In this document: in pieces, positions 4,057 through 52,190 of the stretch
How positions within the stretch are numbered: the stretch's first letter is position 1
Layout of the letters: each line of letters opens with the position of its first letter
DNA from: Candidatus Omnitrophota bacterium
Lineage (GTDB): Bacteria > Omnitrophota > Gorgyraeia > 2-01-FULL-45-10
Direction of reading: 5' to 3'
Assembly: GCA_026387175.1 (NCBI GenBank)
Contig: JAPLME010000007.1
Location: forward strand, 128,487 to 192,486
Length of the DNA stretch: 64,000 nt
Notes under the pieces: model-generated
Told to the model about the DNA's origin: nothing
The model's database searches: none
The model's input: the letters and a program-made list of their open reading frames with translations, nothing else
Translations under genes and position numbers: made by a program

Positions 4057-4111
4057 TCCTAGTTTATTAAGCCATACTGTCTGCCAAGTGCCGATATCCC
4101 TGATATCGGCC
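4057..4111 (-). repeat. Repeated leader element, copy 1 (hairpin GCCGATATC-CCT-GATATCGGC at 4090-4110, plus SD)
   Basis: Near-identical 55-nt sequence found at 6 sites. Ends in AGGAG 9 nt before the ATG of 3678..4046. Confidence 0.85.
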
Positions 4112-11555: not shown

Positions 11556-11611
11556 CTCCTAGTTTATTCAGTCGTATTGCAGGCTAAGTGCCGATATCTC
11601 TGATATCGGCC
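11556..11611 (-). repeat. Repeated leader element, copy 2 (hairpin 11590-11610)
   Basis: Same 55-56 nt consensus. Loop is TCT/AGA instead of CCT/AGG. Confidence 0.85.
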
Positions 11612-18370: not shown

Positions 18371-19522
18371 TTACACTCTTTCATAAGGCTCAAAAAATTT
18401 CTTATATTCATCCAGAGCGTATCTATCGGTCATCCCGGCCAGATAATCGCATATCACCCTGTGCTTATCTTCTGTTTTTAATCGGGAATGAGTATTCGGA
18501 GGAAGCTGTTCAGGCTTGTCAAGGTAGTTATTAAAAAGGCTTTCTATAAACCTGTAGGCTTTATTGGCCATCCGCACTACCCGATAATGCTGATATAGGT
18601 TCTTAGTAAGAAATTCTCTCATGGGCCGGCGAAGCGCGTGCATATCTTTTGAAAATGTGACGATCCTTTCCGGGAGATTGACCGCGTCAGAGGCTTTCTT
18701 TACATTGAACTTTTTTATATTAGTTTCTGTCTGAGTTATTATATCTGTGACCTGCTCATTTATAAGAGAGCGGATTATCTGGTACTTTCTTATCTCCTCA
18801 CTCATCTTCGGATACCGCCGGTCAAGGCCCTTCTTCCTGTCGGTCCATAATTTCAGATGTTTCAGATCACCCTCTTTGATGAGCCCGCTGGTTATGCCGT
18901 CGTCGAGATCATGGTTGTCATACGCTATCTCATCCGCCAGATCCACAACCTGGATCTCAAGAAGAGGCGAACCGTCCGACCTGAACGGGCTGACCGGTCT
19001 CGGCCTGTCAAAGGCCGTGGAATGTTTTATAATACCCTCTCTCACCTCATAGGTCAGGTTCAGTCCCGGAAAATTCGGATATCGCTGTTCCAGGAGATCG
19101 ACGACTCTTAGCCCTTGCGTATTGTGGTCGAAGCCGCCATAGTCCTTCATCATATTGTGCAGGGCATCTTCACCGGAATGGCCGAAAGGCGTATGCCCCA
19201 GGTCATGGGCCAGACTGAGCGCCTCTACGAGGTCCTCATTTAGCCTGAGAGCTCTTGCTATAGTTGTCGCTATCTGGCTTACCTCAAGGGTGTGGGTAAG
19301 GCGGGTGCGGTAATAATCTCCTTCATGATTGACAAATACCTGTGTTTTGTATTCAAGGCGCCTGAACGCGGTGGAATATATGATGCGATCTTTGTCGCGC
19401 TGGTAACAGGACCGGTAGCCATGCTCCTCTTCCTTGTAGCGGCGGCCCTTTGTCATACGGCTCTTCTGGGAGTACGGAGCGAGCATGCCTTCCTTTTTTT
19501 CCAGGTCTTTTCGTTTAAGCAT
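18371..19522 (-). CDS. dGTP triphosphohydrolase-like HD domain protein
   Basis: Dgt family: RTRLTHTLEV...AHDLGHTPFGH. Confidence 0.8.
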   Translation of the reverse strand: MLKRKDLEKKEGMLAPYSQKSRMTKGRRYKEEEHGYRSCYQRDKDRIIYSTAFRRLEYKTQVFVNHEGDYYRTRLTHTLEVSQIATTIARALRLNEDLVEALSLAHDLGHTPFGHSGEDALHNMMKDYGGFDHNTQGLRVVDLLEQRYPNFPGLNLTYEVREGIIKHSTAFDRPRPVSPFRSDGSPLLEIQVVDLADEIAYDNHDLDDGITSGLIKEGDLKHLKLWTDRKKGLDRRYPKMSEEIRKYQIIRSLINEQVTDIITQTETNIKKFNVKKASDAVNLPERIVTFSKDMHALRRPMREFLTKNLYQHYRVVRMANKAYRFIESLFNNYLDKPEQLPPNTHSRLKTEDKHRVICDYLAGMTDRYALDEYKKFFEPYERV

Positions 19523-19532
19523 GGGTTTTCCG

Positions 19533-20003
19533 TTATTTACTCTTCAAAAGCCGGTAGACGGCATCGAGCGACTCGGATATCACTCTGGAGCCCGCGGTCA
19601 CAGGCATAAAGTTGGTGTCTCCGGTCCATCGCGGCACAATATGTATATGCAGATGGCCCGCATAACCGGCGCCGGCGGTCTTACCGATATTGAGTCCGAT
19701 GTTGTAGCCGTGCGGTTTTAGCTTTCTATCCAGGATGGCCTTTGTCTTATTTACAAGTCTCATCATATCGAGAAGCTCTTCGGAGGATAGAAGCTCAAGG
19801 CTCTTGACGTGCCTGTATGGCGCGACCATCACATGACCGTTATTATACGGAAAGATATTCAGGATCGAAAAGGAATGTTCCGACCTTTCAAGGATATACC
19901 TCCTTTTCGCGTCAGCCTCTTTTTTCGCGCCGCAGAAGATACATCCTGTCCGTTTTCTTAAATATATGTACTTGCTTCTCCAGGGGGCCCATAACTTATC
20001 CAT
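19533..20003 (-). CDS. HIT family hydrolase (Ap4A-hydrolase-like)
   Basis: HIT motif HLHIHIV. LWAPWR N-terminus typical of this subfamily. Confidence 0.75.
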   Translation of the reverse strand: MDKLWAPWRSKYIYLRKRTGCIFCGAKKEADAKRRYILERSEHSFSILNIFPYNNGHVMVAPYRHVKSLELLSSEELLDMMRLVNKTKAILDRKLKPHGYNIGLNIGKTAGAGYAGHLHIHIVPRWTGDTNFMPVTAGSRVISESLDAVYRLLKSK

Positions 20004-37812: not shown

Positions 37813-40434
37813 TTAGGGATTCTTGTCCGGCGAAATCACTACTTCCACGCTCTTCCCGAGGTCAAGATATTTATCAAGGACTCTCCTGACATCCTCTTTG
37901 GTCACCTTATCGACCTCTGTCTCATATTTGTAAAGATTATCATAGCCTAAACCGCGAAGTTCTTCCACCGCAAAATTAAACGTGAAAAATCCGTTCGATT
38001 GCATTGCCATCTGATGACGGGAGGAGAGCTCCCTCTTGGCACGGCGAAGCTCGTCATCCGTTATACCGGACGACTTCACCTTGCGCAATTCTTCGATTAA
38101 CGCTTTTTTAACGGCGGGCAATTTATCTTTTGTGGTAGCGACATAAAACGCGAAGATCCCTTCATCGGTCCAGTAATCCTGCCAGCATCCGAGCGTGTAA
38201 GCAAGGGAAAGCTTATTGCGCAAGTTCTCGAATAGCCTTCCCGAATATCCGGACATGACGGCGCCCAGGACTTCCAGCGGGTATCTGTCAGGGCTTTTTC
38301 TGGAGACGGCCTTAAAGCCCAGCGCGATAAGGCTCTGCTCCTTATCCATGGCGATCGAAACCGTCTTTGCTTTATCGATGGCCGTCTCGCCTGCCGAAGG
38401 AATGGACAGCTCTTTGCTCTTGAGATCCGAGAAGAGTCCTTTTAATTTACTTATCGTCTTTTCGGCATCGACGTCGCCCGATATGGCGATAACCATATTA
38501 TTAGGCAGGTAATATTTTTTGTAGAATTCCGCCGCATCCTCAGGTTTTAAAGAGCTTACGGATTCAATCCGGCCTATGCCGCGAAGCCCGTAAGGAGAGC
38601 CGGCGAAAAGCTCCTTCTTCAGGGCATTCATACCGACTTCAAAGATATCATCGTCCTCTGCTTTTATCGACGCTATAATGAAAGATTTGCTTTTTTCGAA
38701 TTCCCGCTCGGAGAAATTCGCGTTCACCAAAACATCTTTCAGTATCTCCAGCGCCATATCCAGATCGGGTTTAAGCACGGATATGCTGACACCGAAAGTA
38801 TTGACGCCGCTGAAAGAGTCAATCTCTCCACCCAGCTCCTGTAACACGCCTTTTATCTTGCCGCTGTCGGGCCTGGTATATGTGCCCCGCAGGATCATAT
38901 CCGCCGTGATATTGGATATTCCGTTATCCTCTTTAGTCTCCGCCGTTAACGCACCAAGCATTGCCGCCGTTATCGTGACGGATGGTATCTTCTTGTCTTC
39001 CCGCACGAAAAGTTTAAGGCCGTTCGGGAGCAACGCCTCTTTTACCGTATTCCGGACATTTGGCCTTTCAATAAAATTCTTTTGCTCTTTTTTGCCCGGA
39101 GGCAAAATCCTAACTGTGGTAAGATTATCGGCGCGAAGGTACTTATTCGCGACGGCCTTTATATCTTCTTTTTTTACGGCATTTATACCTTCGACGTAGC
39201 GCCTGGAGAAGCCTTCGGAGCCTGTCAGCATGTAGCTTGTGGATATATCATTGGCCTGAGCTTCTATGGTCTCAAGGATCGATATGTAATCGGCCAGCAA
39301 CATGCGTTTAGCGGAATTGAGCTCCTCATCCCGCACGAGGCCGGCGCGCAAGATGCCCAGTTCTTCCATTATAGACTTTTCGGTTTCACCCAGCTTGTTT
39401 TCATCAAGTACTACCGTTATCACGAATAATCCGGGATCCCTTGGCGTGTAATTCGACGCACTTACGGTATAGACCAGGGCCTTGTTTTTATACAATGAAG
39501 TATTGAGCCTCGAGTTATCCCCCTGCCCAAGGATCTTTGATAAGACATCCATGGCGAACAGATCTTCGCTTAAAATACTTGTTGAATGGAAGCCCATGGC
39601 AAGATACGCGAGGTTCGTCTCTATGCGCTCATCCGCGCTTCGGGACTGAATCTGCGCCGGTTCAATGCTTATCAGGTCCGAAACGCTGTAATCCGCGCGC
39701 CTGAAGTCCTCGAACTCCTTTTCGACCTGAGAGATCGCTGCGGACTCATCGATGCCTCCTGCCACCGTCACTATCATCCTGTTCGGCACGTATCTGGTTT
39801 TATAATATTTCACTATGTCGCCTGCAGTGAGAGCTTTCAGGTTCTTTTCGTAACCTATAGTTGGAAATTTATATGTGTGGCTCAAGTAAGCCTTCTCGTT
39901 CAAAAGCCGCATCAGCCGCCCATGGGGCTCGTCCTTGTCCATCCGTATCTCTTTCAGGATAACTTCTTTTTCCCTTGTGAGTTCGGCGGGGTCCATCTTC
40001 GCGTTAAGGAGCATATCCTTAAGGACGGCCAGGGCCTGGGGAAGATATTTTGACGGTAAGACTATATAGAAATCCGTGGCGTCATTGGAGGTGGAACCGT
40101 TTATTATACCGCCGTAGGATTTAATCTCTTTTTCAATGTCGCCTACGCCCCTGGAAGCAGTTCCCCTGAAGAGCATATGCTCCACAAGATGTGAAATTCC
40201 CGAACCTAGATATTCGCCTTCAATGCTCGAGCCTGCTTTCACCTTCACATCTATCGCGACCAGGTCCTGTGGAAGCGAATATTTGGCTAAAACAGTGAGG
40301 CCGTTATCTAAGGTTATCTTAGAAACGGCCTCATCAGGAAGGACTATTGCATCTTGTGAAGCGCCGTAGGCGGCAGATGCTATAAATGAAAGAAATATCA
40401 GTGCCAGGTTTATTCTTTTAATTATTTCTTCCAC
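37813..40434 (-). CDS. Secreted two-unit M16 family zinc peptidase
   Basis: Signal peptide. HxxEH inverzincin motif (HLVEHMLFRG) in first unit, second inactive M16 unit. GTG start overlaps the last codons of rpsU. Confidence 0.8.
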   Translation of the reverse strand: MEEIIKRINLALIFLSFIASAAYGASQDAIVLPDEAVSKITLDNGLTVLAKYSLPQDLVAIDVKVKAGSSIEGEYLGSGISHLVEHMLFRGTASRGVGDIEKEIKSYGGIINGSTSNDATDFYIVLPSKYLPQALAVLKDMLLNAKMDPAELTREKEVILKEIRMDKDEPHGRLMRLLNEKAYLSHTYKFPTIGYEKNLKALTAGDIVKYYKTRYVPNRMIVTVAGGIDESAAISQVEKEFEDFRRADYSVSDLISIEPAQIQSRSADERIETNLAYLAMGFHSTSILSEDLFAMDVLSKILGQGDNSRLNTSLYKNKALVYTVSASNYTPRDPGLFVITVVLDENKLGETEKSIMEELGILRAGLVRDEELNSAKRMLLADYISILETIEAQANDISTSYMLTGSEGFSRRYVEGINAVKKEDIKAVANKYLRADNLTTVRILPPGKKEQKNFIERPNVRNTVKEALLPNGLKLFVREDKKIPSVTITAAMLGALTAETKEDNGISNITADMILRGTYTRPDSGKIKGVLQELGGEIDSFSGVNTFGVSISVLKPDLDMALEILKDVLVNANFSEREFEKSKSFIIASIKAEDDDIFEVGMNALKKELFAGSPYGLRGIGRIESVSSLKPEDAAEFYKKYYLPNNMVIAISGDVDAEKTISKLKGLFSDLKSKELSIPSAGETAIDKAKTVSIAMDKEQSLIALGFKAVSRKSPDRYPLEVLGAVMSGYSGRLFENLRNKLSLAYTLGCWQDYWTDEGIFAFYVATTKDKLPAVKKALIEELRKVKSSGITDDELRRAKRELSSRHQMAMQSNGFFTFNFAVEELRGLGYDNLYKYETEVDKVTKEDVRRVLDKYLDLGKSVEVVISPDKNP

Positions 40435-40589
40435 GCCATTTTTCTCTTGCGCCGCTTCTGCTCGCTCGGCTTCTCGTAATGCTTTCTAGCCTTAAGCGTC
40501 TTAAGAGTTCCCTCTATCTCCATCTTTTTTTTGAATCGTCTAAGCGCCTTTTCAATAGGCTCATTCTCACCAACGGTGATCTTAGGCAT
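40422..40589 (-). CDS. rpsU: 30S ribosomal protein S21
   Basis: 55-aa ORF below the track's size cut-off: MPKITVGENEPIEKALRRFKKKMEIEGTLKTLKARKHYEKPSEQKRRKRKMAWKK. Matches bS21 (ENE.IE.ALRRFK ... YEKPS ... RKRK). Confidence 0.8.
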   Translation of the reverse strand: MPKITVGENEPIEKALRRFKKKMEIEGTLKTLKARKHYEKPSEQKRRKRKMAWKK

Positions 40590-40621
40590 CTTTTATCTCA
40601 CCCCTTTGCATGATTTTCCAT

Positions 40622-40650
40622 ATCTTATCAGCCGCTCTACCTGTTGTCAA
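40622..40650 (-). promoter_or_regulatory. Sigma70-like promoter (TTGACA-N17-TAAGAT) for rpsU
   Basis: Perfect -35 overlapping the stop of the NYN gene. AGGGGTGA SD before the rpsU ATG. Confidence 0.35.
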
Positions 40651-41033
40651 GGTCTAACTAATTTATCCCAGAACGCTTCGCATTTCAGCGGCGTGGCAAA
40701 ATAGCTCTTCGCATGATAATATATATCGTTGTCCGACGATACGACCCTTATATTGCGCCTCTGCCGGTCAGGGGTATCCTCTATATACTTTTTTATATAA
40801 TTATCTGCGTCTCTTGAGGCCACTATTCTTAGTTTCGGCGTGCTCGTGTAGCGTATATCGAGATATTCATTTGTGCTGTCAAATACCAGCACAATGGGAT
40901 CGTTATGGGTTTCCTGAAACTCGCTTAGATATGATATGAGTGCCTGGGCGGATTCGAGAGAATCCGCGCCGTCATCTCTTATTCTGGACCTGCGGTTTCG
41001 TATTAAATTCCACCCATCTATTATAATCGGCAC
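40647..41033 (-). CDS. NYN/PIN-like domain protein (YacP/Rae1-like)
   Basis: IIDGWNLI start and acidic residues (DSTNE, SSDND) typical of LabA/NYN nucleases. Confidence 0.55.
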   Translation of the reverse strand: MPIIIDGWNLIRNRRSRIRDDGADSLESAQALISYLSEFQETHNDPIVLVFDSTNEYLDIRYTSTPKLRIVASRDADNYIKKYIEDTPDRQRRNIRVVSSDNDIYYHAKSYFATPLKCEAFWDKLVRP

Positions 41034-41036
41034 GGT

Positions 41037-41291
41037 TTACTTTAAAGCAGCTTGTAAATTCTGCATCTCCCTCAACAATATCTGATACAACTCTATGGAA
41101 GATTTAAGGGCCCATAACGTAAAAATAATTGTTAGCGCGGTAAGGACTATCTTTTGCCAACTTTTGAAGGCAGGGCTGATCCAGACCATAGGTATAGCGA
41201 ATGGCCCGATGCCGATTATCGCTATCAATATTACCGCGGGTTTCAGATACCACTTAACCGTCTTTTTATCAAGCTGGACATCCGGCGCCAT
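41037..41291 (-). CDS. Small membrane protein
   Basis: Two predicted TM helices. 84 aa. Confidence 0.35.
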   Translation of the reverse strand: MAPDVQLDKKTVKWYLKPAVILIAIIGIGPFAIPMVWISPAFKSWQKIVLTALTIIFTLWALKSSIELYQILLREMQNLQAALK

Positions 41292-42474
41292 AAAGGCCTT
41301 TCGTGTATGACTTCTGTTCTTTCAATGCCAGGGCTATGTCTTTTTCCGCCGTAAACCCTAGCTGCGTCAATATATCACCCAGGAGCATTCCTCGTCTCCA
41401 ATGGGTCGTAAGGGCCTCGTCCAGTTTTTCGGCTGTTATCATCTTCCGGTCCAGCAGGATCTGCCCGAGAGGCTTGTAAGTATAACCCTCACCGGTATCC
41501 GGCTTAAAGACATGCGGCGAGCGGCGGGCCTCCTTAGGACCGGTGCGCCTGTCGGCCATGTATTTTGATCCCGTAAGGGCCTTGAGATAGCGTTTCACTT
41601 CCGCTATCTTTTCATTTATCTCTATTACATTCTTAAATTTTTCATCTTCGCCGCTGTTCACCACAGCTATCGACACGCTGACCAGAGGTATGTTCTTTAT
41701 CTTATGGTCTCTGGCTCGCGCAACTACATAGCCGCGGGAACGGTCTTCTTTATTATAGTGGAACGGCATTACCATATTGAATGCCGCGATGAAGTTCTGG
41801 CATATCGCGGCATGTTTATCGGGAGTGGTGATAAACGCGAAGTCATCCCCTCCTATGTGCCCTATAAAATCGCCGCTATTACCGAACTTCAGTATTGTCG
41901 TGTAGAGCATATAGGCCGTTTGCATTATGACACGGTCACCCTGCAGATAGCCGTACATATCGTTGAAATATTTAAAATTGTCCAGATCCAGATATCCGAA
42001 GGAAAAGGCCTTACCGTCCTTTAGCCTGTCGCGCAGGTTTTCTTCGATGAGCCTTCCGCCCGGGAGCCCTGTAAGAGGCATTGAATAGAAGCTGTATTGC
42101 AGGCGTTTTATTGCCATCTCGACGCGCACCCTCAGATCAAGTGGATCCGGAGGCTTTATCAGGTAATCGTCCACCCCCTGTTTGATGCTCAAGAGATGCC
42201 CGCGAAGCTGTCTTTTATTGATAAGGGTTATTACCGGAATGTAGGCCGTAATGAAATCGCTTTTAAGGAGCCCGCATATCTCCAGATCCATATGCTTTGC
42301 CGCGTGAACATCGATCACTATGACGTTAGGCGAGATCTTTTTTATAGGCGTGACATCATGTACCATCGTTTCGAAAAGGATAACCTGATACCCCCATCCG
42401 TCGAAGCAGAATCTCAACACTTCGCGCAAATTTTTATCGGATGATATTATCAGGATCTTTTTCGGCTGGTCCAT
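41269..42474 (-). CDS. Response regulator receiver - GGDEF(GGDDF) - MshEN (T2SSE_N-like c-di-GMP binding) domain protein
   Basis: REC domain with phospho-acceptor Asp (VIVIDV). GGDEF domain whose signature reads GGDDF. C-terminal LGQILLDRKMITAEKLDEAL...GMLLGDILTQLGF resembles the MshE N-terminal c-di-GMP-binding domain. Confidence 0.7.
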   Translation of the reverse strand: MDQPKKILIISSDKNLREVLRFCFDGWGYQVILFETMVHDVTPIKKISPNVIVIDVHAAKHMDLEICGLLKSDFITAYIPVITLINKRQLRGHLLSIKQGVDDYLIKPPDPLDLRVRVEMAIKRLQYSFYSMPLTGLPGGRLIEENLRDRLKDGKAFSFGYLDLDNFKYFNDMYGYLQGDRVIMQTAYMLYTTILKFGNSGDFIGHIGGDDFAFITTPDKHAAICQNFIAAFNMVMPFHYNKEDRSRGYVVARARDHKIKNIPLVSVSIAVVNSGEDEKFKNVIEINEKIAEVKRYLKALTGSKYMADRRTGPKEARRSPHVFKPDTGEGYTYKPLGQILLDRKMITAEKLDEALTTHWRRGMLLGDILTQLGFTAEKDIALALKEQKSYTKGLYGAGCPA

Positions 42475-42497
42475 CTCTTCCTCTCGCGAAATCCGCT

Positions 42498-43055
42498 CTA
42501 AAACTTAACCTCCGGCACGGCCTTTGCTTTATCTTCCGCCCTGAAGTACTGATTGGCCGGCTTATACCCGAAGATCCCGGCTACGACATTTCCGGGAAAT
42601 CGCCGGACGGTTATATTGAAGTCCATGACGGCTTCATTAAATCTCATCCGTTCTACTGCTATGCGGTTCTCGGTGCCCGATAGCTCGTCCATCAATTTGA
42701 GGAACGTTCCATCCGCCTTAAGCTGCGGATAATTTTCAGCTACAGCGATGAGCCTGCCCAGGGCCATATCCATACTTGACGCCGCATTCACTTTATCATT
42801 CAGAGTACTGGCGCCTGCCCACTGCGAACGCGCCTTTGTTACATCCTCGAAAAGAGTCTTTTCGTGCGCGGCATAACCTTTAACGCTATTAACGAGATTC
42901 GGTATCAGGTCGTTACGCCTCTGGAGCTGGTTCTCGACCTGCGCCCATTTAGCCGTTATGTTTTCATTCTTGGAAACAATGCTATTGTAAACACCTGCAA
43001 ATGATACCGCGATCACTACCGCGATGATTCCTAACGCCACCAAAAAATTTTTCAT
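42498..43055 (-). CDS. LemA family protein
   Basis: N-terminal TM plus LemA core (YNSIVSKNENITAKWAQVENQLQRRNDLIPNLV). Confidence 0.8.
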   Translation of the reverse strand: MKNFLVALGIIAVVIAVSFAGVYNSIVSKNENITAKWAQVENQLQRRNDLIPNLVNSVKGYAAHEKTLFEDVTKARSQWAGASTLNDKVNAASSMDMALGRLIAVAENYPQLKADGTFLKLMDELSGTENRIAVERMRFNEAVMDFNITVRRFPGNVVAGIFGYKPANQYFRAEDKAKAVPEVKF

Positions 43056-43062
43056 TTCATCT

Positions 43063-43118
43063 CTCCTAGTTTATTAAGCCCTATAGCAGGCTGAGTGCCG
43101 ATATCCCTGATATCGGCC
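43063..43118 (-). repeat. Repeated leader element, copy 4 (hairpin 43097-43117)
   Basis: Full element with AGGAG SD 8 nt before the LemA ATG. Confidence 0.85.
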
Positions 43119-43170
43119 TAGTTTATTCAGCCATATTGTATGCTAAGTGCCGATATCCCTGATATCGGCC
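43118..43170 (-). repeat. Repeated leader element, copy 5 (tandem, hairpin 43149-43169)
   Basis: Directly abuts copy 4. SD is degraded to AGGCC. Confidence 0.85.
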
Positions 43171-43193
43171 TTATGTTTTACCCTTCGCCGAAA

Positions 43194-44105
43194 TTAAAAT
43201 CCTCCACCGGCCCCTCCGCCTCCTCCGAATCCTCCGCCGAATCCTCCGCCTCCTCCGAATCCTCCGCCGCCTGTGCCCCAGCCCCCTGAAGTGGAAGTCC
43301 ATGTGCCGCCAAAGAGTTGAGGCCCGAAGAAATCGCGACGTTTTTTGCCCGGGAGCTTCCGCCAGTAAACATACCTTACCGCCATAGAAGCAATGTAAGC
43401 GACAACTATCGAAAGTCCGGTAATCTGATTAAAATTATACAGTGCTACGGCGAATATCATGGTGAACGGCAGACTGATGATAATAGGCCATGGGATGCTC
43501 CAGATAAAGAAAAATAGCGGAATTCCCGCGTATAATACTATATTGCCCAGAAGAGAGCCGGAGGTGAGCAGTCCGCGGTTAAGGCTGACTCCCTTTAAGG
43601 TATCAAGCGCGATATTCGAATTCCGAGATATAATATCCGCTATTGCCGCTGTCCCGTTGTAAAGGCCTTCAGCGTACTTTCCCTGTTTAAAAAGAGGCAC
43701 CATGTAGCTGCGGCCTATCTCACCGCATTTTCCATCCGGCAGGATTCCCTCCAGGCCATAACCGGTCTCTATTCGCCAGCGCCTCTCCTTGACCGCGAGA
43801 AGTATCAGAACGCCGTTATCCTTACTTTTTTTCCCTATCTTCCAATTATCAAAGAGAAGCCTCGCGTAGCTGATCTCATCATACGGAGCGATCGATTCCA
43901 TCGCGACCACTGCTATCTCCGCCGATGTCCTTGCCTCCACCTCCGCTATTAGAGTCTGCAATTTCTGGCGATATTCGGGCGATATGACGTTAGCGTAGTC
44001 GTTTATCCACCCTTCGGGTTTTGGCACAGCCTCAACCCCCTGCGCAGGGCACGCAAAAAATAATAACGCGAATAAAACGGCAACAGCAAACGTCTTCTTA
44101 ATCAT
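43194..44105 (-). CDS. TPM domain protein (TLP18.3/Psb32/MOLO-1 family) with Gly-rich C-terminal tail
   Basis: Signal peptide, TPM phosphatase-like domain, TM segments, (GGGF)n tail. Conserved LemA-TPM gene pair. Confidence 0.7.
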   Translation of the reverse strand: MIKKTFAVAVLFALLFFACPAQGVEAVPKPEGWINDYANVISPEYRQKLQTLIAEVEARTSAEIAVVAMESIAPYDEISYARLLFDNWKIGKKSKDNGVLILLAVKERRWRIETGYGLEGILPDGKCGEIGRSYMVPLFKQGKYAEGLYNGTAAIADIISRNSNIALDTLKGVSLNRGLLTSGSLLGNIVLYAGIPLFFFIWSIPWPIIISLPFTMIFAVALYNFNQITGLSIVVAYIASMAVRYVYWRKLPGKKRRDFFGPQLFGGTWTSTSGGWGTGGGGFGGGGGFGGGFGGGGGAGGGF

Positions 44106-44836
44106 TATAGTTTATCTACCACCGAAACAATCGATTCAAGTTCTTTTACTAAACCGGACAGGAGCGCATCCACATCTTTATAAGCAAGCGACATCTTCTT
44201 ATTCTTCGCCCAGAGTATCTTGCTTAACATTGCCGTATCAACGCCGAGCGCTTTTTCAGCGGAATTCAGTATTTCCTCTTTTAGGTATGGAGGATGGATC
44301 CCCTTAAGCCTGAGAATGTTGCGCATTATATGAAGCGCCGAGGTGAAAGTCTTGAATAATAGATTCTCCAGATCTGTCTTGTTTTTTGTAGAGAGGTATA
44401 ACTTCTTTATGTTTATAAGTTTGGACTTGAGTTCCTGTTCGCATTGGAAGCGCAGATTCTTGTTATCTACCTTAAGGCCCTTTATCAGGTCTCTTCCATA
44501 CAGGATCGTATAGTTTTCCGTGATGTCCAGAAATTCTATCGGAAAGACATCGAGAGAGCTCTTAATATATCCCTCGGTAAAGAATACAGGGCTTATCATC
44601 TTGAACTTGCGGGAATTAATTATTGAGTACGCTTTAGAAAGGTTGGCCAAAGATGTGTCGTCTAAGACCACCATGACATTGACGTTCGAATATTTTTTAG
44701 CGAACTCGCCGCTTGAAGCGCTTCCATAAAGAATGACCGAGATGAGGGTATCCCGGTATAAATCTTTCAATCCGGCCGTGAAATTTTTCAGACGAGCTCT
44801 TAGCTCCTCCGGTAGATTTAGGTCATCCATGGGCAT
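44105..44836 (-). CDS. Nucleotidyltransferase-fold domain protein (possibly degenerate)
   Basis: LYGSASSGEF...NVNVMVVLDD resembles the minimal Pol-beta-type NTase GS...D.D motif. Likely start is the second ATG (44830), 6 nt after the AGGAG of leader copy 6. Confidence 0.45.
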   Translation of the reverse strand: MPMDDLNLPEELRARLKNFTAGLKDLYRDTLISVILYGSASSGEFAKKYSNVNVMVVLDDTSLANLSKAYSIINSRKFKMISPVFFTEGYIKSSLDVFPIEFLDITENYTILYGRDLIKGLKVDNKNLRFQCEQELKSKLINIKKLYLSTKNKTDLENLLFKTFTSALHIMRNILRLKGIHPPYLKEEILNSAEKALGVDTAMLSKILWAKNKKMSLAYKDVDALLSGLVKELESIVSVVDKL

Positions 44837-44892
44837 CTCCTAGTTTATTCAGCCATACTGTATGCTAAGTGCCGATATCCCTGATATCGGCC
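44837..44892 (-). repeat. Repeated leader element, copy 6 (hairpin 44871-44891)
   Basis: Same consensus immediately upstream of 44105..44836. Confidence 0.85.
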
Positions 44893-44907
44893 TCCGTAGT
44901 GTTTTTA

Positions 44908-45561
44908 TCAGCTGATCTCAGATTCAATTTTCACAATGATACTGGATATATCCTTGATCACCGCGGCCGGAAGCATCTTGGATATCTCCAGGTCCCTCTT
45001 CAGAGCCTTTAAGGTGGCCAGCGATCTCTTCAGCGTGGACAGCCTCTTCTGTATGCGGGCCTCATCCGGATCCATCTCCTCCCGCTGTTTTATGATGCTG
45101 GTCAGGCTTCTTCGGACCTCGCTGGCATCTTTGCCGTGTGCGAAGACATCTTTCTTTAAGGCGGCGTAATCGACTCCGTCAAGCTTCTTCTTATCTTTGG
45201 CAAGACGCAATAGATTTACTGATTCGTAACTTGGCACAGAGCTTGCATTCACCGGATCGGAATTTTCTTTCTGCAGATATATGGGCTCTTCTTTTTCTAA
45301 AAAATAATAACTTTTGAGAAGCTTCATAGCCGTGGCTTTCTTTATGCCGATCTCTTTGCCGGTATAGGCCTCGAAAGTCATGTATCCCCACTCTTTATAG
45401 AGCTTGTCTTTCCAGGCGGCATATAGGGACTGGCCCAGATCCATCCATGATGTCTTAAAGTTCTTAGCGCTTTGAAGTATCCGGTATCTTACAGAGCTTT
45501 TATCGATGCCTTCCATCTTGCTGCTAATGCTTTCAAGCGATTTTGTTGTAAGTTTTGTCAT
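44908..45561 (-). CDS. Hypothetical protein
   Basis: 217 aa, coiled-coil C-terminus, no recognisable motif. Confidence 0.4.
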   Translation of the reverse strand: MTKLTTKSLESISSKMEGIDKSSVRYRILQSAKNFKTSWMDLGQSLYAAWKDKLYKEWGYMTFEAYTGKEIGIKKATAMKLLKSYYFLEKEEPIYLQKENSDPVNASSVPSYESVNLLRLAKDKKKLDGVDYAALKKDVFAHGKDASEVRRSLTSIIKQREEMDPDEARIQKRLSTLKRSLATLKALKRDLEISKMLPAAVIKDISSIIVKIESEIS

Positions 45562-45611
45562 ACGGCCATTATATCCTAAAAATTGGACTTTTTAAACTAA
45601 TTTGATAGATA

Positions 45612-45640
45612 TTGACATATTCGAGACCCTGACTTATCAT
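45612..45640 (+). promoter_or_regulatory. Sigma70 promoter (TTGACA-N17-TATCAT) for plsC
   Basis: Consensus -35 with 5/6 -10. Predicted TSS coincides with ATG 45648. Confidence 0.5.
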
Positions 45641-45647
45641 GTGTAAC

Positions 45648-46364
45648 ATGTTAAGAAAAATCATGGTTTCAATAATAGTATGGACGATAAGCATCATGCT
45701 TACTATAACACTCTATTTTGTTATACTGGCGGCGGTGATCTTATTCCCTTTCGATAGAGACAGGAGACGCGCGCATGAGCGGTGCTACTTATGGAGCGAC
45801 TTGATCATGGGGCTGAATCCATTTTGGAAGATCAAAGTATCAGGCCTCGAAAATATTGATCACAATAAGACTTATGTAATAGTGGCAAATCACCAAAGCC
45901 TGGCGGACATTGTCATCCTTTATCAGACAAAGACGCAGTTCAAGTGGGTCGCGAAGGACAGCCTCTTCACCGTACCATTCATCGGATGGTCTCTCTCGCT
46001 TTGCAAACATATACGCATAGCGCGCGGCGAGCTTGGAAGTATAAAAAAGGTTTACAAGGAAGCTCAGGAGTGGTTAAGGAGAGGGATGTCCGTTTTATTC
46101 TTTCCGGAAGGAACACGCAGCGCGACCGGAGAAATGAAAGATTTCCAGAACGGCGCTTTTAAATTAGCGATCAGAGAGAAGCTGCCGGTGCTGCCTATAC
46201 TGTTGGAAAACACCGGCAGCGCTATGCCTAAAGGCAGCTGGCTCTTCGAACCTCAGGCGCCGTCCAGGATGAAAGTATTACCGGCTATCGACACATCTAA
46301 TTTCCAAGATGCCGATTTTGCCCGCCTAAGAGATATAACCCGCTCTATGCTAAAGTCGGCTTAA
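45648..46364 (+). CDS. plsC: 1-acyl-sn-glycerol-3-phosphate acyltransferase
   Basis: HX4D motif (ANHQSLADI) and FPEGTRS. Track start 45639 overlaps the -10 box, so the next in-frame ATG (45648) is the likely, probably leaderless, start. Confidence 0.75.
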   Translation: MLRKIMVSIIVWTISIMLTITLYFVILAAVILFPFDRDRRRAHERCYLWSDLIMGLNPFWKIKVSGLENIDHNKTYVIVANHQSLADIVILYQTKTQFKWVAKDSLFTVPFIGWSLSLCKHIRIARGELGSIKKVYKEAQEWLRRGMSVLFFPEGTRSATGEMKDFQNGAFKLAIREKLPVLPILLENTGSAMPKGSWLFEPQAPSRMKVLPAIDTSNFQDADFARLRDITRSMLKSA

Positions 46365-51209: not shown

Positions 51210-52160
51210 TTAGTCAAGGTCCTTGCCTTTTATGCTATCGTAAAACTCCCTGTAATTCTCTTTATTATGGCTTGCGCGAAGCTCCATCGCGGCCTTCGGG
51301 TGCTCATCCAGCATCCCGGTTATGGCGTACGGAATGATATAGCCCCATTCCATCTTCTCCCTTAGCGGTATAAACTCTTTTGATATAAGGTCCAGTATGG
51401 GGCGTATATCATACTTAGGGTTCTTCAGGAAACCTATTAACAGTTCGAGCGGACAATTTCCGGCAGCGCGGCCAAGTCCGTATACCGTACCGTCTACAAA
51501 ATTCACGCCGTGTATTATCGCTTCGATTGTATTCGCGAATCCCAATTGCTGGTTATTGTGGGCATGTATACCTATCTCCTTGGTCTTTATTATCTTCATC
51601 GCTTTCTTAACAAGGAATTCCGTCGTCTCCTGATACAGGGACCCGAAACTATCGACGATATAGATAACATCCGCTTTCGATTCGTTTTCCAGCTGCTCGA
51701 GCGCCTCGGTGATCTCGTTATCGAGCGCGCGCGATATGGCCATTATATTTACAGTCGTCTCGTAACCTTTATTCGCAAACTGGTTTACGAGATGTATGGC
51801 CTTATCGATATCTTTAACGTACGACGCGACCCTTACCATGTCTATGGGTGAATCCTTTTTAGGTTTAATATCGTCGATATCCACCCTGCCGACATCGACC
51901 ATCACCGAGAGCTTCATCTTGGAAGGTATGCCATCTATGATGTCCCTGACCGCATCGTCATCACAGAACTTCCACTTGCCGAACTTTGCTCCGGGAAAGA
52001 GTTTCTTCGAGTTCTTATATCCTATCTCCATGTAATCCACGCCCGCTTCCGAAAGAGCACGATATATTGCCCTCACGAAATGATCGCTGAAATCATGGTC
52101 GTTAATAAGTCCTCCGTCCCGTATGGTGCAATCGAATACTTTTATCTTCTCCCTGAACAT
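51210..52160 (-). CDS. HMGL-like (DRE-TIM metallolyase / pyruvate carboxyltransferase) family protein
   Basis: N-terminal CTIRDGG, HxH later (GIHAHNN). Confidence 0.55.
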   Translation of the reverse strand: MFREKIKVFDCTIRDGGLINDHDFSDHFVRAIYRALSEAGVDYMEIGYKNSKKLFPGAKFGKWKFCDDDAVRDIIDGIPSKMKLSVMVDVGRVDIDDIKPKKDSPIDMVRVASYVKDIDKAIHLVNQFANKGYETTVNIMAISRALDNEITEALEQLENESKADVIYIVDSFGSLYQETTEFLVKKAMKIIKTKEIGIHAHNNQQLGFANTIEAIIHGVNFVDGTVYGLGRAAGNCPLELLIGFLKNPKYDIRPILDLISKEFIPLREKMEWGYIIPYAITGMLDEHPKAAMELRASHNKENYREFYDSIKGKDLD

Positions 52161-52190
52161 TACGCCTCCCTTTGGTGTATGAACCGCCTA

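Follow-up and report, generated by a model that had tools for sequence, protein, structure and literature searches.

A tandem pair of 52-nt repeat units, probably from a mobile family, at the ribosome-binding site of lemA in a Candidatus Omnitrophota bacterium

In a 64,000-nt stretch of Candidatus Omnitrophota DNA (the window; coordinates refer to it unless a contig is named), the spacer between a TPM-domain gene and lemA carries two directly abutting copies of a 52-nt unit. We consider it probable, at roughly 0.6, that this feature is a two-unit array of a non-autonomous mobile repeat that is specific to Candidatus Omnitrophota and inserts at the ribosome-binding site (RBS). The unit is discrete, site- and orientation-specific and array-forming, varies in presence among relatives, and preserves the RBS.

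Results and Discussion

Two units between the TPM-domain gene and lemA

The genes around the feature lie on the minus strand in the order 217-aa ORF, 241/243-aa ORF, TPM-domain gene, lemA and GGDEF response regulator. The initial annotation had seen a palindromic site doubled in front of a LemA-TPM pair, but the order is 241-aa gene, TPM, lemA, and the element lies within a co-directional gene string. The units of the window and their surroundings are as follows.

43118..43169, minus strand: distal 52-nt unit, GCCGATATCAGGGATATCGGC ACTTAGC ATACAATAT GGCT GAATAAACTAG; 1 nt from the copy at 44840-44891
43066..43117, minus strand: proximal 52-nt unit, GCCGATATCAGGGATATCGGC ACTCAGC CTGCTATAG GGCT TAATAAACTAG; the Shine-Dalgarno sequence (SD) of lemA lies directly 3′
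43149..43169: hairpin H1 of the distal unit, 9-bp stem and 3-nt loop
43097..43117: hairpin H1 of the proximal unit
43053..43067, minus strand: lemA RBS AGGAG (43067-43063) and start codon (43055-43053)
42498..43055, minus strand: lemA, 185 aa, PF04011
43194..44105, minus strand: upstream TPM-domain gene, 303 aa, PF04536; stop codon 24 nt before the distal unit
44840..44891, minus strand: single unit before the 241/243-aa gene (start at 44836 or 44830); orthologous site empty in L134, L136 and L137
36939..36990, minus strand: single unit between a Memo-like gene (stop codon abutting the hairpin) and a patatin-like gene
11559..11610, minus strand: single unit between a SPOR-domain gene and a 106-aa ORF
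4059..4110, minus strand: single unit between a HIT-family gene and a PilZ-domain gene
52149..52177, minus strand: unoccupied target CCAAAGG|GAGGCGTAATG before an HMGL-like gene; orthologues L088 and L116 carry one unit each, of different hairpin subtypes

The TPM-lemA spacer is 138 nt long and consists, on the coding strand, of 24 nt of unique sequence, unit 1, unit 2 and GAGAGATGAA-ATG. There is no spacer between the units: 43169-43118 directly abuts 43117-43066. Tandem Repeats Finder reported a period of 52 with 2.1 copies at 43065-43171 (89% matches, score 172). The two units are identical at 46 of 52 positions, and all six differences fall outside the 21-nt palindrome GCCGATATC-AGG-GATATCGGC. 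The window contains this palindrome six times, where 100 shuffles gave an expectation of 0, and nhmmer found exactly six full copies of the unit. All six are in the sense orientation, and all but the distal lemA unit immediately precede a gene start.

The initial annotation had proposed two complete abutting copies, a perfect AGGAG SD at the proximal copy and no ORF behind the distal one. All three points stand: the pair was recovered by Tandem Repeats Finder, nhmmer and alignment, AGGAG at 43067-43063 lies 7 nt ahead of the lemA ATG at 43055, and no ORF follows the distal copy. The proposal that the distal copy has an SD decayed to AGGCC was not upheld, because CT(A/T)G|GCC, the standard unit-unit junction of the family, recurs at almost every one of the 60 array junctions examined. 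The target gene supplies the SD, which is no part of the 52-nt unit, since empty orthologous sites read ...ACAG|GAGGAG and ...ATAG|GAGGAG. In the lemA RBS, GAG(A)G is the target gene's own and the unit tail contributes only the preceding AG.

The C-terminus of the TPM-domain protein is a glycine-rich GGGF-type repeat, encoded by imperfect tandem repeats of 9/12/18/30 nt (43198-43272).

Size, distribution and anatomy of the repeat family

A profile search of the Omnitrophota MAG and metagenome contigs that we fetched found at least 198 units at at least 138 sites. In a metagenome scan with a pattern made from the 3′ part of the unit, at least 120 stretches matched. When species-representative genomes were scanned for the hairpin type of the window, matches were found only in two Candidatus Omnitrophota MAGs, and the LemA of the window is itself on record from an Omnitrophica MAG. 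Viral contigs gave 0 matches, and a phage origin was rejected on that ground. In our best reading, the family is specific to Candidatus Omnitrophota.

A known ribozyme, riboswitch or leader was dropped as a candidate: Rfam gave no match at the gathering score for the whole window, and nothing meaningful at E values up to 10 for 42980-43260. The family is apparently undescribed so far. It is not described in the searchable literature, recent Omnitrophota genomics papers included, and a search for the sequence string was likewise empty; the Omnitrophota genomics papers searched do not mention intergenic repeats, hairpins or promoters.

The unit consists of a 9-bp palindromic hairpin (H1), an ACTTAGC box, a short AGCC/GGCT stem and an A-rich tail AATAAACT(A/T)G, with the consensus GCC[TC/GA]GGTC-GGA-GACCTCGGC ACTTAGC YRACACYRT GGCT KAATAAACT(T/A)G. 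The conserved boxes are >90% invariant across many metagenomes. Stop codons are present in frame 1 (TAG) and frame 3 (TAA TAA), and the GAATAA variant adds TGA in frame 2.

H1 is variable in sequence and conserved in pairing. All nine of its pairs showed changes on both sides; none of 500 shuffles matched the observed covariation score, and slid controls collapsed. There were 62 distinct hairpins with a loop of 3-4 nt; 22 of them have perfect stems, which fall into about 11 different sequences. A TC/TC internal (2x2) mismatch marks the commonest type. Non-canonical pairs in H1 showed no asymmetry (8 G.U versus 11 A.C). As G.U is not commoner than A.C, these counts leave RNA and DNA undistinguished as the folded species.

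The second stem, AGCC/GGCT, is nearly invariant (93% paired), and on the sense strand it has 68 G.U versus 3 A.C pairs. In its loop (alignment columns 32-41, all loci), nearly all variation is CG to TG/CA at two CpG sites, giving the variants CAAC.., TAAC.., ..CTGT, ..CCAT and ..CTAT of CGACACCGT. This pattern suggests CpG hypermutability, for which cytosine methylation is a possible cause.

Position between the stop codon and the Shine-Dalgarno sequence

An ORF start followed the unit at 116 of the 131 sites with enough downstream sequence, mostly 8-12 nt on. The first four bases 3′ of the unit were GAGG, GAGA, GGGG or GGAG. On the other side, the stop codon of the upstream gene lay within 4 nt of the hairpin foot at about 45 sites. 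The flank logo had an A-rich stretch followed by A, A/G and G (G at −1, 83%), then the unit, then G-A-G-G. The unit thus stands at the bar in AAG|GAGG, and its tail rebuilds (A/T)(A/T)G|GAGG; because this junction is restored, the RBS and its A-rich spacer are preserved.

The 95 downstream proteins matched 124 Pfam families, including FtsH, MreB, L21 and GAPDH. Such heterogeneity of the downstream genes ruled out the operator of a regulon. Units on both strands of one contig, which bear on gene versus replication orientation, were seen at only one locus, L017.

Several sites are unusual in their surroundings. On the minus strand of L026:1-260, one G is shared between a unit and the 5′ end of a tRNA-like gene (GCTGGCGTAGCTCAGTTGGTAGAGCAGCGGTTTCGTAA...). 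Neither ARAGORN nor Rfam called this gene; an interruption after the anticodon loop may be the reason. Near tRNA genes on a different contig (L105:10490-10704) there is a group I intron (RF00028). At three sites, one in L017 (minus strand, ~248-300) and two in L056 (3050-3140 and 4317-4410), the TTG of the unit end and a following ACA form TTGACA. TATACT or TATATT follows 16-17 nt on, making a canonical promoter whose -35 comes partly from the unit end.

Presence and absence at orthologous sites

We took the orthologous region from four relatives with the same gene order and LemA 80-90% identical. In L134, L135 and L137 the TPM-lemA spacer is 21-37 nt long and has no unit, reading ...ATAAACAG|GAGGAG or ...TTAAATAG|GAGGAG.

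In L136 (LemA 84% identical), a different insert of ~71 nt occupies the same point of the TPM-lemA spacer (L136:2921-3000). It bears the hairpins CGCCATC-GGA-GATGGCG and CGCCGCCTGAGGCGTCG and ends in the tail TAATAATAACAG|GAGG. Such an insert suggests that a second, related family exists and that this point is a hot spot for repeated insertion.

When all loci were compared by flank-to-flank BLAST, at least 12 more orthologous sites had a unit in one genome and none in another. For example, L088 reads AAAG-G-[52 nt]-GAGGCG where the window reads AAAG-G-GAGGCG (52168/52169), an exact insertion with no duplication. At this site, before the HMGL-like gene, L088 and L116 carry different hairpin subtypes and the window is empty. 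It is one of two sites that are unoccupied in the window and carry 1-2 units in orthologues; the other is 19512-19545, occupied in L021. Orthologous sites also differ in copy number, with 1 versus 2 units in L081/L098 and 2 versus 3 in L051/L072. The direction of change at these sites, insertion or precise excision, is assigned by parsimony only.

The empty orthologous spacers, the copy-number differences and the exact 52-nt arrays bear out the earlier proposal that the element spreads as a discrete unit, as opposed to a leader or promoter inherited with each gene.

A possible host-selected intercistronic RNA module

The unit might instead be an intercistronic RNA module selected by the host in polycistronic mRNAs, mobility being merely its means of spread. 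The hairpin after the upstream stop codon would define or protect a processed 3′ end or block exonucleases, the conserved box would be a protein or RNase site, and the A-rich tail with the SD would allow independent translation of the downstream cistron. We regard this as a serious alternative, though rather an unlikely one.

The position of the units agrees with it, as they are always sense and lie exactly between stop codon and SD, with the stop within 4 nt of the hairpin at those ~45 sites. So do the strong conservation of the two blocks across many metagenomes and the tolerance of the second stem for U-G and G-U on the sense strand (the 68 G.U versus 3 A.C above). The region in the window folds with a z-score of -5.4 and leaves the SD unpaired in the centroid structure. 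The site shared by L041, L098 and L081 keeps its units although the flanks are only 75-87% identical.

Against such a module, close relatives express the same genes without the unit, and the downstream genes have no function in common. G.U pairs do not exceed A.C pairs in the main hairpin, so RNA is not favoured over DNA there, and the G.U excess of the second stem coincides with CpG decay. The commonest hairpin has the 2x2 mismatch, and the fold of that unit is not significant (z = -0.96). No Rfam family matched. On the other hand, the >90% invariant boxes, which weigh against the mobile-element reading, could equally reflect a host function, and a host role as an intercistronic RNA module could coexist with mobility.

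Promoter and terminator signals

The earlier annotation had spoken of a leader element. As a portable promoter cassette, the unit would use its conserved boxes as -35/-10 equivalents for some sigma factor, and transcripts would start at the unit end with very short, SD-first leaders. We find this very doubtful. Two conserved blocks separated by a variable stretch of nearly fixed length do resemble such a cassette. One unit abuts the 5′ end of the tRNA-like gene in L026, an ATG lies directly 3′ of another (L075), and the tail TTG begins a canonical TTGACA -35 at the three sites in L017 and L056.

However, no pair of sigma-70 hexamers (TTGACA-like and TATAAT-like, 16-18 nt apart) was found in any unit within 40300-45700, and the boxes do not fit the GG-N10-GC spacing of sigma-54, the conserved GGCAC having no GC at the required spacing. 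Most units lie inside tight co-directional gene strings, orthologous genes lack them, and an internal unit of an array would drive transcription into the next units. Before rpsU, the same genomes carry textbook promoters of the form TTGACA-17-T(G)ATAAT. In the window (40622-40650, minus strand), this promoter has TTGACA, 17 nt and a TG-extended TAAGAT, and it is conserved in L134-L136. The Omnitrophota studied use ordinary sigma-70 signals. With no fit in hexamers or spacing and canonical promoters nearby, we rejected a sigma-70 or sigma-54 promoter, and the label of leader or promoter is doubtful for an element within which no TTGACA-17-TATAAT-like promoter of the organism's kind is found.

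An intrinsic terminator on the sense strand was also rejected, as the hairpin is followed by ACUUAGC and no U-tract. On the antisense strand (43097-43126 and 43149-43178, plus), the hairpin is followed by T-rich CTAGTTTATT or CTTATGTTTT, complementary to the A-rich flank, and scores as an intrinsic terminator. The units could thus halt antisense transcription in this near one-directional gene array, possibly as a side effect only.

Arrays and the origin of the lemA pair

Arrays of 2-4 units were present at 52 of 138 sites, with a spacing of 52 nt at 54 of 60 junctions, among the matches listed; because loci were retrieved by the element pattern, arrays are over-represented in these sites. In the window, only one of five sites has an array. 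Array members are all direct repeats. Their junction is CT(T/A)G|GCC nearly throughout, with occasional starts of ACC or GTC.

The lemA pair could have arisen by replication slippage, as the initial annotation had allowed: one resident unit would have been duplicated and the copies would then have diverged. The exact head-to-tail junction and the identity of the two hairpins are what slippage would leave, and in the rest of the family there is complete identity in 11 of 45 neighbouring pairs, which indicates that local duplication also occurs. However, in a comparison of the six window copies only, the distal lemA unit differs by 1 nt from the copy at 44891-44840 and the proximal unit is closest to that at 36990-36939 (4 nt), and the two differ from each other by 6 nt. 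Two insertions are favoured over slippage because the lemA units are not each other's closest relatives. In addition, the extra array member was gene-proximal and of a different subtype in two informative comparisons, L072 with L051 and L076 with L085, which is what re-insertion at a regenerated target predicts. For the lemA pair, slippage is thus the less likely route, and we think it highly improbable; the relationships among these sequences make two insertions in the lineage of the window the most likely origin.

Some neighbouring pairs are mixed. In 9 of 45, the 31-nt 3′ part is identical and the hairpins differ at four or more positions, whereas only 2.8% of random pairs have an identical 3′ part. 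In its behaviour, the 3′ part is specific to the locus and the hairpin to the type. Such pairs are explained neither by whole-unit insertion nor by simple duplication, and they hint that only the homologous part is converted or that only the palindrome is exchanged.

Assembly support for the tandem

Independent short-read contigs bear on whether the tandem is an assembly product. Contigs L001 and L003, from other samples and with identical LemA, begin AACTAG|GCCGATATC...CACTCAGCC, that is, with an element tail followed by the proximal copy. L005 and L006, with an identical TPM gene, end ...ACATAAG|GCCGATATC...CACTTAG, the unique flank followed by a copy with the distal-type box. All short-read contigs with identical LemA or TPM proteins end inside the repeat, and none spans the tandem. 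Three junctions are kept in them: flank with CACTTAG-box unit, AACTAG tail with CACTCAG-box unit, and CACTCAG-box unit with lemA. Taken together, these junctions call for at least two units in the spacer, which makes assembly expansion very unlikely. The assembly thus has support from independent short-read contigs.

That a single copy was expanded by the assembler is a notion we can practically set aside: a dispersed repeat does break short-read assemblies at precisely the TPM-lemA spacer, but six positions distinguish the two copies, both outer junctions and the internal one were recovered in independent samples, and arrays of 52-nt period occur at 52 sites across many independent assemblies, among the matches listed.

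Proposed mechanism

For the mobile-element reading, the unit would be mobilised by an enzyme acting in trans that recognises the hairpin and the adjacent conserved box. A site-specific recombinase may be a candidate, as may a single-strand transposase of the HUH/Y1 type; among processes with such hallmarks, HUH/Y1 single-strand transposition is the one known best. Insertion would regenerate the target next to the SD, so that a further copy could land gene-proximally, and re-insertion together with local duplication would yield head-to-tail arrays of 52-nt period. The effect on expression is probably small by design. As a secondary effect, the hairpin that immediately follows the upstream stop codon may stabilise the 3′ end of the upstream mRNA or terminate antisense transcripts.

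In ~0.85 Mb of related DNA, no candidate for the mobilising enzyme flanked by 52-nt units was found, and a search for an autonomous parent, with split element ends around an ORF, gave only partial matches at contig ends. Searches by tblastn with sequences of IS200 TnpA and E. coli RAYT as queries found one Y1_Tnp gene, in L032.

This gene (L032:4480-5360) encodes a 211-aa IS200/RAYT-like protein (PF01797, E 1.9e-6). A GC-rich repeat, TCGACCGGG(T)CGGTGGGACCGGGGCGGTCGA, flanks it with two copies upstream and one downstream. Gene and repeats form a REP/RAYT-like system on an Omnitrophota contig, with no sequence relationship to the 52-nt unit. As its flanking repeats are not those units, the gene establishes no more than the presence of such systems in the phylum.

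A bolder form of the mobile-element reading, which we offer as speculation and hold to be improbable, is a new bacterial element that targets the SD itself (AAG|GAGG), is moved by a novel hairpin-recognising enzyme and is possibly co-opted by Omnitrophota as a punctuation module that uncouples adjacent cistrons in their long gene strings of one direction. The exchange of hairpins over a locus-specific 3′ part would then reflect a novel mechanism of integration or conversion.

Significance

If the mobile-element reading is true, Omnitrophota carry an abundant undescribed repeat, at about 1 copy per 10 kb in the window and, should that density hold genome-wide, ~200 copies per genome. Its single-base-precise insertion at the RBS would be unreported for REP or MITE types, and MIRUs (mycobacterial interspersed repetitive units) at start codons would offer only a loose parallel. 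The repeat would account for the fragmentation of short-read Omnitrophota assemblies at gene boundaries, and it would supply VNTR-like markers for strain typing in an uncultured phylum. The occupied and empty sites would form a natural experiment on operon expression with a 52-nt hairpin insert between stop codon and SD, and the mobilising enzyme could give a new site-specific DNA insertion activity.

Comparison with known repeats

Several classes of element could be rejected. The unit is not a classical MITE, having neither terminal inverted repeats nor a target duplication. In the alignment, its 5′ end GCCNNGGTC is unrelated to the reverse-complemented 3′ end CAAGTTTATTA, and occupied and empty sites differ by exactly 52 nt with at most one ambiguous G shared. 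An integron attC was rejected because no RYYYAAC/GTTRRRY cores lie at the unit ends and the neighbours are syntenic housekeeping genes, present in unit-free relatives. A CRISPR-like array was rejected as well: conservation extends over the entire unit, core sites are absent, and syntenic housekeeping genes lie alongside.

Like Correia elements (CREE), ERIC and RUP/BOX MITEs, the unit is small, abundant, intergenic and co-transcribed, a kind of element that can alter mRNA processing or provide promoter parts. Those elements differ in their terminal inverted repeats, in their target duplications of TA or other sequences, in occurring in both orientations and in having no RBS targeting. With the PATEs derived from IS200/IS605, the unit shares strand- and orientation-specific insertion beside a short specific sequence, no target-site duplication, and hairpin-bearing ends. 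In PATEs, however, two subterminal hairpins lie some way in from the ends and the length is usually >100 nt, whereas the 52-nt unit has a single strong hairpin at its very 5′ end and no tnpA/tnpB partner was found.

REP/BIME/REPIN sequences are closer. They too are dispersed extragenic palindromes with a variable stem and a conserved short motif beside it, have no target-site duplication or terminal inverted repeats and break assemblies, and a RAYT-like Y1 protein occurs in Omnitrophota (L032). The unit contains an imperfect palindrome of 20-40 nt with a variable stem, as REPs do. REPs differ in having a GTAG motif on the 5′ side, in usually following genes and in clustering as inverted pairs. 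In the 52-nt unit, the box lies 3′ of the hairpin, and copies are direct, sense and immediately 5′ of the SD. The 5′ foot of its hairpin has an A-rich flank ending in G and no GTAG-type tetranucleotide, its array members form no inverted pairs, and the ~0.85 Mb searched contained no cognate RAYT flanked by the same repeats.

MIRUs reportedly fall into several size classes (Supply et al. in 1997), one of them of ~50 nt. They are apparently mobile, sense-oriented and array-forming, and they insert at start codons and spare downstream expression (PMC12548453). The 52-nt unit resembles the ~50-nt class in being intercistronic and sense, in standing singly or in head-to-tail arrays, and in its variable copy number (PMC12548453). 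We compared the two by description only, by which a MIRU inserts at the start codon with a small ORF coupled through a -4 overlap. Our family has the intercistronic, sense arrays of variable copy number and has no internal ORF with -4 coupling. Instead, the 52-nt unit ends 8-12 nt before the start codon and splits AAG|GAGG; it combines stops in two or three frames with a palindromic hairpin that covaries, and it belongs to a different phylum.

MIRUs and REPs are thus the closest known analogues, and the 52-nt family fails defining features of both. We file it under small non-autonomous dispersed repeats. The lemA tandem is real and ordinary for its family, and the choice of target is what is unusual.
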